A stretch of 64,000 nucleotides of DNA, taken from NCBI GenBank assembly GCA_963817895.1, contig CAWFQB010000011.1:32001-96000 (forward strand), written 5' to 3'. Made by a program: the position numbers and the translations under genes. Under the pieces are notes generated by a model. The model was not told the origin of the DNA. It was given only the letters and a program-made list of their open reading frames with translations, and did not search any database. Every line of letters begins with the position of its first letter. Position 1 is the stretch's first letter. This DNA comes from an uncultured Chthonomonadaceae bacterium (lineage in GTDB: Bacteria > Armatimonadota > Chthonomonadetes > Chthonomonadales > Chthonomonadaceae). Of the stretch, positions 2,951 through 59,507 are shown piece by piece.

Positions 2951-3763
2951 ATGCTGGCAAACAAGGTTATTCTTTACGACGACAGTTGCCCGATGTGCAA
3001 AGTGTACACGCAGGGGTTCGTAAGTATGGGCATCCTGACGCCCGAACATCGCGTCGGTATGGCCCGCGCGGATGCGGAAACGATGCGCCATCTTGACCTG
3101 AACCGGGCGCGGCACGAAATTCCTCTTCTCGACACCCAAACGGGCGAAGTGACGTATGGCATGGACGCGCTGTTTTTGCTGATCGGACACCGCGTTCCCA
3201 TTTTTACACCCCTGTTTCGCAGCCGAACTTTTCGCGCAATGGTGTACGCGCTGTATCAGCTTGTCACCTACAACCGCCGCGTGATTGCCGGCTGCGCCGC
3301 GCCCCGTGAAGGCTTCGATTGCGCCCCGGATTTCAATCGCGCGGTACGGGTAAAGTATCTGCGCCTCGCGATTGCGGTTTGGGGTTTGCTGATTGGCGGC
3401 GCGGCGATTACGACAGGTTCTGCCCATCTATGGTTGCTGTTGGCATTGGTGTTGAGCGGCGCGGGCGTACAAACGATTCGGTTTGCGCAGGCGCTGCGCG
3501 GCCACTGCTTCTGGGACAGGGCGGGCAGTTACGCCACCAACAATCTGCTGTTCGGTTTGCTGCTCATGCCCCTGCTGCTGCCGCTGCCCGCTCCCCTGCG
3601 CTGGCTCGGCTTCGGCGTTGCGGCAGGCGTCACTCTGCTGGACGCCGCCCGCCGTCAGCGCAACTGCCGCCGCTGCCTTTCCCATACAAAACTTTGCCGC
3701 GAAGAGCATCAGAAACCGGCGCGTAAGCGCGAAAACAACTCCGGCGTCCTCCCGTTCAAGTAG
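2951..3763 (+). CDS. DCC1-like thiol-disulfide oxidoreductase (DUF393) with C-terminal transmembrane helices
   Basis: N-terminal ILYDDSCPMC (DxxCxxC) motif, YNRR motif, hydrophobic C-terminus. Confidence 0.75.
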   Translation: MLANKVILYDDSCPMCKVYTQGFVSMGILTPEHRVGMARADAETMRHLDLNRARHEIPLLDTQTGEVTYGMDALFLLIGHRVPIFTPLFRSRTFRAMVYALYQLVTYNRRVIAGCAAPREGFDCAPDFNRAVRVKYLRLAIAVWGLLIGGAAITTGSAHLWLLLALVLSGAGVQTIRFAQALRGHCFWDRAGSYATNNLLFGLLLMPLLLPLPAPLRWLGFGVAAGVTLLDAARRQRNCRRCLSHTKLCREEHQKPARKRENNSGVLPFK

Positions 3764-4011
3764 AAGTTCGCAGGGGTACAACTCACTTGACCTATGGACA
3801 ATGCAATTCGCGCATGATAAACTGTGGAATATATCCATTCCGTTTTAACCTGCAAGCCGCCTGCAATCTTTTCGATCCGCGTCAGCGGTTGGAGAATGGC
3901 GAACTGGACGCCTTCTACGTTGCGCGTCCACATGCGCCTGTACAGCGCTTGAAAAGCTACCTGTTTACAAGGCGTAACTGCGAGACAGGCTCTGTTATAA
4001 AGGCGAAATGA

Positions 4012-57886: not shown

Positions 57887-57915
57887 TTGTTAAGGGCGCA
57901 AGACTGTGTTATACT
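57887..57915 (+). promoter_or_regulatory. Sigma70-type promoter of the amber-tRNA locus
   Basis: TTGTTA-N17-TATACT with extended -10 TG. Confidence 0.65.
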
Positions 57916-57982: not shown

Positions 57983-58063
57983 ATGTATTAGGGCATCATT
58001 CGCATAATCAGGATCAGGCAAGCGGCGGCTTTTTGTCATTGGGCAAAAAGGCGGCGCTTTTTT
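57983..58063 (+). promoter_or_regulatory. Leader minigene ATG-TAT-TAG followed by an attenuator-like hairpin and T-run
   Basis: Minigene 57983-57991; imperfect 17-bp hairpin 58021-58058 followed by a T-run. Confidence 0.55.
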
Positions 58064-58112: not shown

Positions 58113-58451
58113 ATGAGCAAACAGAAATCATCGGGTGAGCCGGTGGTCACCGGCAAAGCGGCCTATATCGCGCGGCTGCGGGCGGGCGAAACCGTCAGTT
58201 TCCGCGAGGGCGGCAACAGCATGACGCCCCGCATTAAATCGCGGCAGAAGTGTACATACAAGCCTGTGATGGCGGCTGAAGACGTGAAGGTAGGCGACGC
58301 CGTATTCTGCAAAGTGGGCGGCAACTACTTCACGCACCTGATTACCGCCCTGCGCGGCGACCAGTACCAGATCAGCAACAATCACGGCCACGTCAACGGC
58401 TGGATTACGCTCAACAGCATCTACGGCAAAGTAGTTGCGATTGAGGATTAG
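58113..58451 (+). CDS. S24/S26 peptidase-like protein
   Basis: GNSMTP Ser motif, VGD, and His in the general-base position (YFTHLI); ends in TAG. Confidence 0.65.
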   Translation: MSKQKSSGEPVVTGKAAYIARLRAGETVSFREGGNSMTPRIKSRQKCTYKPVMAAEDVKVGDAVFCKVGGNYFTHLITALRGDQYQISNNHGHVNGWITLNSIYGKVVAIED

Positions 58452-58527
58452 GAGGGTGTTCGGTGTTCGGTATTGGGAAGGGGTGGAACAAAGTAAAATC
58501 GTGTGCTATCAGTAAGTTTGAGATTAC

Positions 58528-58599
58528 GCCCGTGTCGCCATCTGGTGAAGGCAGCCGCCTCTAAAGCGGCCAAGATGGGTTCGATCCCCATCACGGGCA
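58528..58599 (+). tRNA. tRNA with CUA anticodon (amber suppressor-type); amino-acid identity uncertain
   Basis: Acceptor GCCCGTG/CACGGGC, D-stem GCC/GGC with GG in the loop, anticodon stem GCCGC/GCGGC, loop CT-CTA-AA, 4-nt variable loop, T-arm ATGGG-TTCGATC-CCCAT, discriminator A, no encoded CCA. Confidence 0.88.
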
Positions 58600-58642
58600 T
58601 AGTGACGTATCCGAACACCGAACACCGAACACCAAACATCGA

Positions 58643-58665
58643 AAGGAGTTGTCGCCATGTTGTAG
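58643..58665 (+). promoter_or_regulatory. Second minigene with SD: AAGGAG-N8-ATG-TTG-TAG
   Basis: Strong SD at optimal spacing before a 2-codon ORF ending in amber (58657-58665). Confidence 0.55.
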
Positions 58666-58762
58666 CCGCGCTCGCCGCCGTTTGCCTGAAAAGACAGAGA
58701 ACGATGCAAGAAATCTTTGCAGAAAACCTTCTACTTTTTACTTTTCAGGAGAACGAACACAA

Positions 58763-59155
58763 ATGAAGACATTGAACAGAACCATGACCGCGCGGTTTTT
58801 CCGCAGCGCGGAAGATTATGACCGTTTGATTGCGCTCTGGAGCGGCGGGATGCGGGACAGGGCAACGCGCCGCCAACTGACTGCCGCGCACCATCTGCTG
58901 TACCTGATTCTGCGTGGCCGCAACTGGCACTCGGCCTTTACACCGGTCACAAACGCCTGTAAACTGGAAAATGGGGGAGTATACAATTGGGGCGCGCGTC
59001 GCGCCGTCCATGCGCTCCATTATGGCAATGCAGAGGATTTGCTGGCTCCGTTTCGGGATATGCTTGCTCCTTCTGCGTTGGTTCTGGCGCGCGAACTGGT
59101 TCCGGCAGACAGTTGGAACGAGGCATTGCAAGGAGGCGAACCCTACCATGCCTGA
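58763..59155 (+). CDS. Hypothetical protein with HHLLYLILRG motif
   Basis: SD CAGGAG; overlaps the start of the Pth2-like gene. Confidence 0.65.
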   Translation: MKTLNRTMTARFFRSAEDYDRLIALWSGGMRDRATRRQLTAAHHLLYLILRGRNWHSAFTPVTNACKLENGGVYNWGARRAVHALHYGNAEDLLAPFRDMLAPSALVLARELVPADSWNEALQGGEPYHA

Positions 59156-59507
59156 ACTGCCGAACGCGCAGCCGAGCGGGCATGTGTATGTGTTCGTCCG
59201 CAGGGATTTGCCGATTGCCGACCAGATGGTACAGGCGGCGCATGTTTGTCTGGAAGCGGGCCAAAGGTTCTGCGTCCCCTGCCATTGCCCGCTTGTGTTG
59301 CTTCAGGTGGCGGATGAACCGGCCTTGCATCGCGCCTTGCAGCATTGCCGCCGATACGACATTGCGACGCACACGTTTACAGAACCGGACGCGACGGAGG
59401 AGTTTCCGCAAACGCCGATGGGCTTGACCGCCGCCTGTACGCCGCCCTTAAATACGGCGCAGCGCAGGCGTATGCGTCCTTTCACGTTATGGCAGCCTCC
59501 GTCGTAA
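59148..59507 (+). CDS. Peptidyl-tRNA hydrolase 2-like (PTH2 family) protein
   Basis: YVFVRRDL, QAAH, LVLLQV, EPD and TA motifs of the Pth2-like fold. Confidence 0.75.
   Translation: MPELPNAQPSGHVYVFVRRDLPIADQMVQAAHVCLEAGQRFCVPCHCPLVLLQVADEPALHRALQHCRRYDIATHTFTEPDATEEFPQTPMGLTAACTPPLNTAQRRRMRPFTLWQPPS

Follow-up and report, generated by a model that had tools for sequence, protein, structure and literature searches.

The 64,000-nucleotide stretch of DNA analyzed here (the window) comes from the 7.5-Mb, 81% complete genome of an uncultured Chthonomonadaceae bacterium (the host, G000), and holds an amber tRNA gene among the following features.

57887 to 57915, forward strand: sigma-70-like promoter, TTGTTA-17-TATACT with extended -10 (9/12 in a consensus scan, about one such match per region being expected by chance; position inferred)
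57983 to 57991, forward strand: leader 1, ATG-TAT-TAG, with a frame open through the terminator if the TAG is read
58020 to 58063, forward strand: terminator-like hairpin with a U tail, which begins near codon 13 of the leader (folding and an overlapping terminator call)
58113 to 58451, forward strand: 112-aa S24/S26-peptidase-like open reading frame (Atlas score 0.97 to Peptidase_S24 clusters; TIGR02227 at E 0.0036, below its cut-off)
58456 to 58475, no strand assigned: left (GTGTTCG)n repeat arm, a generic genome repeat
58528 to 58599, forward strand: tRNA(CUA), anticodon CTA at 58561-58563, G1-C72, A73, CCA not encoded (ARAGORN, Rfam)
58612 to 58640, no strand assigned: right (CGAACAC)n repeat arm, likewise a generic genome repeat
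58642 to 58689, forward strand: leader 2, a Shine-Dalgarno (SD) sequence and then M-L-UAG-P-R-S-P-P-F-A-UGA (TAG at 58663-65, RSPP at 58669-80)
58681 to 58751, forward strand: attenuator stem, in which the bases directly 3' of PP pair with the OrfA SD region (58741-58751)
58763 to 59155, forward strand: OrfA, 130 aa, all-alpha, without a Pfam, NCBIfam or PADLOC family
59148 to 59507, forward strand: Pth2-fold protein, 119 aa, a copy without an in-frame TAG, which most homologues have

The sequence-only reading of this DNA had proposed a canonical cloverleaf with an amber anticodon that is not a tRNA-Pyl, and both parts were borne out. ARAGORN finds a single tRNA gene in the window, with the anticodon CTA, and the full-length match to RF00005 (53.8 bits and E 8.7e-09, the gathering score being 29) places it in the tRNA family. 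The ARAGORN parse (acceptor 7 bp, D-stem 3 bp, anticodon stem 5 bp, T-stem 5 bp) agrees with the D- and anticodon-stem lengths claimed earlier. Pyrrolysine tRNA has an atypical fold, with a 6-bp anticodon stem, a 1-nt linker between the acceptor and D-stems and a 3-nt variable loop. We rejected this fold for the window tRNA, which has a 5-bp anticodon stem, a 2-nt linker, a short variable loop of 4 nt and A73, G73 being usual in tRNA-Pyl according to PMC9976931. The best match to PylRS in G000 (81% complete) reached 28 bits against a cut-off of 178, none of the five other cassette genomes (two of them >90% complete) exceeded that cut-off, and PylB, searched in G000 only, reached 26 bits against 348. 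ARAGORN labels the window tRNA as tRNA-Pyl; such calls in these genomes are mislabels.

A consensus error in the anticodon, named at the outset as the possible undoing of the claim, is excluded because CTA recurs at the same place in the cassettes of G011 (another genus of the same family) and G095 (another family), on very different tRNA bodies, and in 39 of 46 loci recovered with a protein query. The suggested origin by a recent one-base change of host tRNA-Gln or tRNA-Glu is not supported; both lie outside the ten best host matches. Host tRNA-Gln(CTG/TTG) carries U1-A72 and G73, and host tRNA-Glu(CTC) has a different body. The closest host tRNA scores 40/72 in this 81% complete genome, far from the near-identity expected of a supE-type point mutant of tRNA-Gln or tRNA-Glu, which we rejected; a viral CUA tRNA scores 51, and the closest match among the tRNAs collected is viral. 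Bacterial CUA tRNAs share G1-C72 (55 of 56) and A73 (53 of 56) and keep little else across lineages, the loop having been selected for in those found by pattern. In the Chloroflexota-type CUA tRNAs (e.g., L045 and L039), position 8 is A in 40 of 46 and 31:39 is an A-C or other mismatch in 29 of 46, nonstandard cores which suggest deliberately weak suppressors. A host synthetase probably charges the tRNA. According to PMC9976931, amber tRNAs that combine U35 with A73 lean to lysine, and LysRS was favored in E. coli suppressor work; lysine is our first, tentative candidate for the charged residue, probably followed by leucine, tyrosine or glutamine. The UAG residue sits in unconserved tails, and its identity may therefore matter little.

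What the sequence-only reading missed were the UAG leaders and UAG-gated genes around the tRNA. In all four loci compared (G000, G011, G306 and G095), the tRNA is followed by a strong SD and ATG-NNN-TAG, and the four read-through products would be M-L-x-P-R-S-P-P, M-L-x-A-R-S-P-P, M-L-x-L-D-F-L-x-Q-C-R-G-P-P and M-R-x-P-H-T-I-R-P-P, the G306 leader ending in RPP without the four-residue motif. G000 has 40 SD-ATG-NNN-TAG sites genome-wide, with an RxPP motif at leader 2 only; a second SD-ATG-TTG-TAG at G000 C11:360200 has neither motif nor cassette. Contigs from related strains span the cassette, and among the variants listed the Arg codon of leader 2 shows a synonymous change in such strains in at least three sequencing runs. 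Across 60 distinct leaders, a set that mixes in pattern-selected loci, the motifs are RAPP (28), RDPP (11), RSPP (11), RGPP (6), RPPP (3) and KGPP (1), the motif Arg is encoded by AGA (36), CGN (22) or AGG (1), and frames +1 and +2 contain the motif only twice each. RAPP, RGPP, RDPP and RSPP are described in PMC12992588 as arrest-prone motifs depleted from proteomes. The RxPP lies 5 to 10 residues from the leader start, shorter than in studied arrest peptides.

The bases that follow the motif form an anti-SD, whose duplex with the OrfA SD averages -13.5 kcal/mol against -6.6 kcal/mol for shuffled sequences (51 of 60 leaders at p<=0.05), and which varies together with the SD across leaders. Computed mean accessibility of the OrfA SD is 0.11 in the free leader, 0.11 with a ribosome at the UAG and, even with a ribosome at PP, only 0.41; in the window, the unpaired probability rises from 0.26 to 0.57 once a ribosome footprint is placed at PP. 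The window leader regions overall fold no better than shuffles (z of -0.83 and, for the whole leader 1 region, only -0.87). Leader 2 has both an in-frame RxPP and, by computation, an SD-hiding stem, and we predict it to be a RAPP-like arrest-peptide attenuator. Because the read-through motif adjoins an anti-SD that pairs with the OrfA SD, read-through of the UAG should stall the ribosome and open OrfA to translation.

OrfA belongs to a family of 774 representatives at 50% identity, and has no Pfam match and no meaningful match in NCBIfam, PHROG or PADLOC; among the PADLOC 2023 profiles, none of the three cassette proteins of the window found a family. Its all-helical model (pLDDT 86) matched no PDB chain at Z>=5, which is not proof of a new fold, and gave a single structural match, to an uncharacterized protein of phage fHe-Yen9-04 (TM 0.54/0.63, E 0.12). 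Annotation as a methyltransferase (best Atlas score 0.87, below the trust level) was not adopted.

The downstream gene, which overlaps the OrfA end, encodes a member of a family with a Pth2 fold (profile E 1e-07; Foldseek probability 1.0, TM 0.61-0.70; model pLDDT 90), though the window protein itself scores 13.5 bits against the PF01981 cut-off of 23 and 11 of 26 family members match the Pth2 profile at E<=0.01. Catalysis by Pth2 depends on conserved Lys, Asp and Thr residues. When aligned with Pth2, the family has D or Q at the Lys position, EPD in place of DAG, and a gap at the G-x-T loop that holds the Thr; we regard it as a Pth2 fold with apparently altered active-site residues, and any peptidyl-tRNA hydrolase activity as putative. 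Mycobacteriophage homologues are annotated as Pth2 peptidyl-tRNA hydrolase, and the host already has Pth1. A further RxPP tail ends 43 of 80 Pth2-like homologues, and Gln stands at the gated position in two ungated ones (G011 and L123). In locus L040 (about 3141-3836), the stop codon of OrfA doubles as the TAG gate of the Pth2-like gene, with the two genes in one frame, and read-through could therefore yield an OrfA-Pth2 fusion.

Upstream of the tRNA, leader 1 forms a second ATG-NNN-TAG arrangement; in G011 and G306 its spacing to the hairpin, and the point where the hairpin starts, are the same. This arrangement occurs in these three loci only, an SD-ATG-NNN-TAG being present within 250 nt upstream in 1 of 67 other loci. 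The S24/S26-peptidase-like frame lies within the cassette in G000 and G011 only, with stand-alone copies at L003 and L005. The inverted (GTGTTCG)n arms noted earlier are present (3 matches against 0.06 expected), but the repeat is generic, with 66 copies in G000 and seven inverted pairs, six of them around short non-tRNA inserts, and the G011 cassette has no such arms. The repeat arms are incidental and lie outside the system.

As judged from sequence, the cassette is made up of tRNA(CUA), a leader M-x-UAG-...RxPP, OrfA and the Pth2-fold protein, and is patchy, mobile and phage-related. A nucleotide search through 41 relatives recovered the locus in G011, where the CUA tRNA has a quite different body and the OrfA and Pth2-like genes are frameshifted, and an OrfA search of 301 genomes of the phylum added two further true loci, G095 with a CUA tRNA and G306 with a tRNA variant that has a 6-nt anticodon loop. 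Two weak OrfA matches (G293 and G252, E about 2e-4) were dropped, as they lie inside unrelated genes. The cassette was found in 3 of 68 genomes of the order and in 0 of 300 other genomes in the phylum of G313, and was not found in two same-genus genomes that retain both flanking genes.

Two wider sets were assembled by different routes. A GTDB scan with a pattern that joined a CUA anticodon arm to a downstream ATG-NNN-TAG and left RxPP out returned 40 loci, of which the ten that proved to be tRNA-Ser or no tRNA served as controls; RxPP was present in 26 of the 30 loci with a CUA tRNA and in 0 of the 10 without. By record title these loci are mostly Chloroflexota or its classes, with one Vulcanimicrobiota. 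The second set, 71 metagenome loci recovered with no query other than the profile of the Pth2-like protein, is mostly Chloroflexota-type; its loci are related and some are near-duplicates, and its counts therefore overstate independence. Of the 46 loci whose upstream DNA extends for 750 nt or more, 39 have a CUA tRNA and all 46 have OrfA; a leader with the motif was present in 41 of 50. The tRNA was not nearby in seven of 46, one being found at a relaxed threshold and several looking truncated or interrupted, and L080 keeps the TAG leader without a CUA tRNA. The Pth2-like gene could be scored in 69 cases; in 57 of them an in-frame stop separates the start from the domain and no later start is available, and these stops are TAG in 56 cases, TGA in one and TAA in none, with 51 at codon 5; the remaining 12 are, like the window copy, ungated. 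In Chloroflexota loci a promoter-like sequence was seen by eye directly 5' of the tRNA.

Pth2-like genes also occur in phages, where two queries matched 227 and 40 records. Of 12 records chosen to span groups, eight (fHe-Yen9-04, GAP32, ME3, Arash, RsoM2USA, pT24, XacN1 and RAS14) show an in-frame TAG as codon 3 or 4; in Bxz1 and Myrna a usable GTG comes immediately after the TAG, and RaK2 and Lak-A2 are ungated. A CUA tRNA was found in six of the eight early-TAG phages and also in Bxz1 and Myrna; a pattern search of RaK2 found none. In XacN1 and RAS14 an HD-motif domain precedes the Pth2-like domain in a fused protein (L198 964-1803; L205 1018-1803), and in both the annotated start lies 3' of a TAG at codon 3; XacN1 ORF364, for instance, has SD-ATG-AAG-TAG in frame 5' of its annotated start. 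The gated gene is unannotated in fHe-Yen9-04 and RsoM2USA and its annotated start is late in GAP32, Arash and XacN1: annotation misses candidate targets because the TAG falls at codon 3-5. The CUA tRNA of XacN1 has been published (PMC5852040), and PMC5852040 and PMC12386605 state that the amber suppressor tRNAs of XacN1 and of Zeta crAss-like phages have no targets that could be found. In IMG/VR, 40 of 45 pattern matches have a CUA tRNA, and what follows it is either a TAG-gated ORF (Pth2-like or other) or a mini-leader that ends in RGP(P), RAPP or TGPP. A family of unknown phage proteins 3' of the CUA tRNA (L153, L165, L169, L171, L173, L178, L183, L184 and L192) starts M-x-TAG-I-E-(Y/F)-A-C and has a VFHFNKKH motif, and two more TAG-gated families occur in L177/L187/L193 and L152/L194; the L152 CUA tRNA has a 24-nt extra arm with a second loop showing CTG. 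The A2 scan of viral contigs gave one locus only.

The host itself is not recoded. In G000, TAG is the stop of 300 of 1,113 ORFs with 500 or more codons and of 306 of 1,090 long SD-led ORFs, so that TAG is an ordinary stop there and a TAG-reassigned code 15 host was rejected. A genome-wide search of G000 for other amber-gated genes gave no TAG excess (14 TAG candidates against 16 TAA and 41 TGA). GlnRS was not found in G000, G095, G313 and G316 and is present in the other two of the six genomes, G011 and G306. RF1 is present in 5/5 cassette genomes tested. In G000, RF1 and RF2 show one-base frame breaks at C4:318300 (L027) and C3:683660 (L029), which are probably assembly errors because 4 of 28 conserved genes tested are similarly broken and four other cassette genomes have an intact RF1.

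Besides the amber tRNA, G000 has a full ordinary tRNA set, and some unusual tRNAs were seen elsewhere in the genome: about 17 extra tRNAs in an array at C4:223181-230044 (L035), including a short-arm tRNA-Leu(CAG) and tRNA-Ile(TAT); atypical Met/Cys/Glu tRNAs with a common D-loop lacking GG at C3:373423-373740 (L031); atypical Val(GAC) with Cys(ACA) at C1:603042-603212 (L032); and atypical Ala(CGC)/Tyr tRNAs at C14:153206-153479 (L034), followed by an ORF into which a transposase-like gene is inserted. The last part of the contig that contains the window (C11:355000-361341, L030) has no bacterial-looking ORFs and looks like foreign, possibly eukaryotic DNA, and possibly a chimeric join.

We propose, with a probability of about 0.8 given the architecture seen in these sequences, that the amber tRNA gates its own cassette through UAG read-through. 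Where RF1 wins at the leader UAG, the ribosome would leave and the OrfA SD would stay hidden; where the charged tRNA(CUA) wins, the ribosome would reach the RxPP, stall and cover the anti-SD, so that OrfA and the coupled Pth2-like gene could be translated, the overlapping Pth2-like gene usually needing a second read-through of a UAG at codon 3-5. In G000, G011 and G306, read-through of leader 1 would bring a ribosome over the 5' arm of the terminator and raise transcription of the tRNA in a positive feedback. The purpose of such gating is harder to read, and we only tentatively suggest that the cassette senses weak UAG termination through the contest between RF1 and suppressor, and induces peptidyl-tRNA recycling: when UAG termination fails with RF1 lost, inhibited or trapped, the tRNA would carry ribosomes past the UAG, and the induced Pth2-like protein and OrfA would recycle peptidyl-tRNA. 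More speculatively still, phages and bacteria may share an undescribed and widespread type of translational switch, in which RF1 faces competition from a dedicated amber tRNA that is weak by design, so that RF1 loss or inhibition by a defense system, toxin or antimicrobial turns on a UAG-gated regulon, with the altered Pth2 and OrfA as a back-up route for ribosomes stuck at UAG. If true, such an RF1-gauging class would account for the "suppressor without recoding" tRNAs that large phages carry, would imply an RF1-directed arm of phage-host conflict, and would offer a stepping stone to full TAG reassignment.

The same gating could instead serve a self-limiting suppressor, in which OrfA, the Pth2-like protein or both would act as brakes scaled to the activity of the amber tRNA, by deacylating, binding or aging it, as part of a phage-derived toxin-antitoxin or addiction-like module. 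We consider this unlikely, though several observations fit it: neither protein would be made without a working tRNA, the cassette is mobile and patchily distributed, its Pth2 active-site residues appear altered, and TAG is so common a stop in G000 that unrestrained suppression would be costly. Against it, the leader 1 feedback would be positive, not negative, in three loci, many unrelated phage ORFs sit behind the same early TAG, and the fusion of the Pth2-like domain to an HD-motif domain in XacN1 and RAS14 suits a general recycling of tRNA ends. Less probable again is an antiphage sensor, where an incoming phage suppressor would start the leader read-through, the cassette's own tRNA would amplify the signal, and OrfA or the Pth2-like protein would act as defense effectors. 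Large phages do commonly carry CUA tRNAs, the distribution is patchy, and in three loci a UAG-controlled terminator precedes the tRNA, so that the first read-through would have to come from outside; but the promoter-like sequence in Chloroflexota loci stands directly before the tRNA, phages themselves carry gated Pth2-like and OrfA-like genes, PADLOC gave no match, and no defense genes were noticed among the neighbors listed. That the locus is a decaying phage relic, with the tRNA as a passenger and the TAGs as nonsense mutations or real minigene stops, is very improbable: the phage-related genes, the several truncated or interrupted loci and the G011 frameshifts fit decay, but a bias of 56 TAG to one TGA and no TAA with 51 at one codon position does not, nor do the conservation of the protein sequence downstream of the TAG (where Arg is written now as AGA, now as CGN) and the covariation of anti-SD with SD. 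Genetic-code expansion or reassignment in the host, to pyrrolysine or to glutamine under code 15, can practically be dismissed, since the ARAGORN label, the Gln residues in G011 and L123 and the GlnRS genes of G011 and G306 are outweighed by the PylRS and PylB scores, the ordinary use of TAG as a stop in G000 with no convincing other amber-gated gene, and the failure to find GlnRS in four of the genomes.

Returning to UAG gating by the amber tRNA, its components each have a precedent, and we found none for the assembled wiring in the open literature, nor any description of the cassette in open-license PMC papers and bioRxiv. If true, this would be a natural stop-codon read-through wired to an arrest peptide and attenuator, for which we found no description. 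Leader 2 resembles the RAPP/RGPP-type arrest-peptide attenuators ApdA, ApdP and CruR (PMC12992588), which likewise place an RxPP upstream of the regulated gene and hide the downstream SD in an mRNA stem; the main text of that paper contains the words "amber," "UAG," "suppressor" and "readthrough" 0 times. In contrast to these, the cassette motif follows an in-frame UAG, its leader is 8-22 codons long and lacks a secretion signal, and the input would be stop-codon read-through and not pulling force or a metal. The cassette protein shares its fold with Pth2 (PF01981), but falls below the Pfam cut-off and, as aligned, has EPD for DAG and does not keep the Lys. The pyrrolysine system (pylT, pylS and pylBCD) similarly has a dedicated CUA tRNA and reads UAG in few genes, whereas the cassette has a canonical tRNA shape, no PylRS above cut-off in the six genomes tested and no PylB above cut-off in G000, and its UAG in unconserved N-terminal tails and not in an active site. 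In Streptomyces, the bldA tRNA-Leu(UAA) gates TTA-containing genes, with the codon near the start and with feedback. Both systems would thus use one special tRNA to gate genes that have its codon near their start, but the cassette gate is a stop codon contested by RF1, with an added arrest peptide, in a compact mobile cassette. In the frameshift autoregulation of prfB (RF2), an early in-frame stop gauges release-factor activity; the cassette would use read-through by a dedicated tRNA and not frameshifting, and its outputs are not a release factor. Finally, phage CUA suppressor tRNAs (those of XacN1 and the Zeta crAss-like phages, and the "anticodon CTA" tRNA of ME3) are likewise canonical amber tRNAs in genomes where TAG is kept as a stop. 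Compared to these, the window tRNA lies in a bacterial chromosome with its candidate targets adjoining, and the cassette thereby supplies candidate targets for the puzzling amber tRNAs of phages that keep TAG as a stop.
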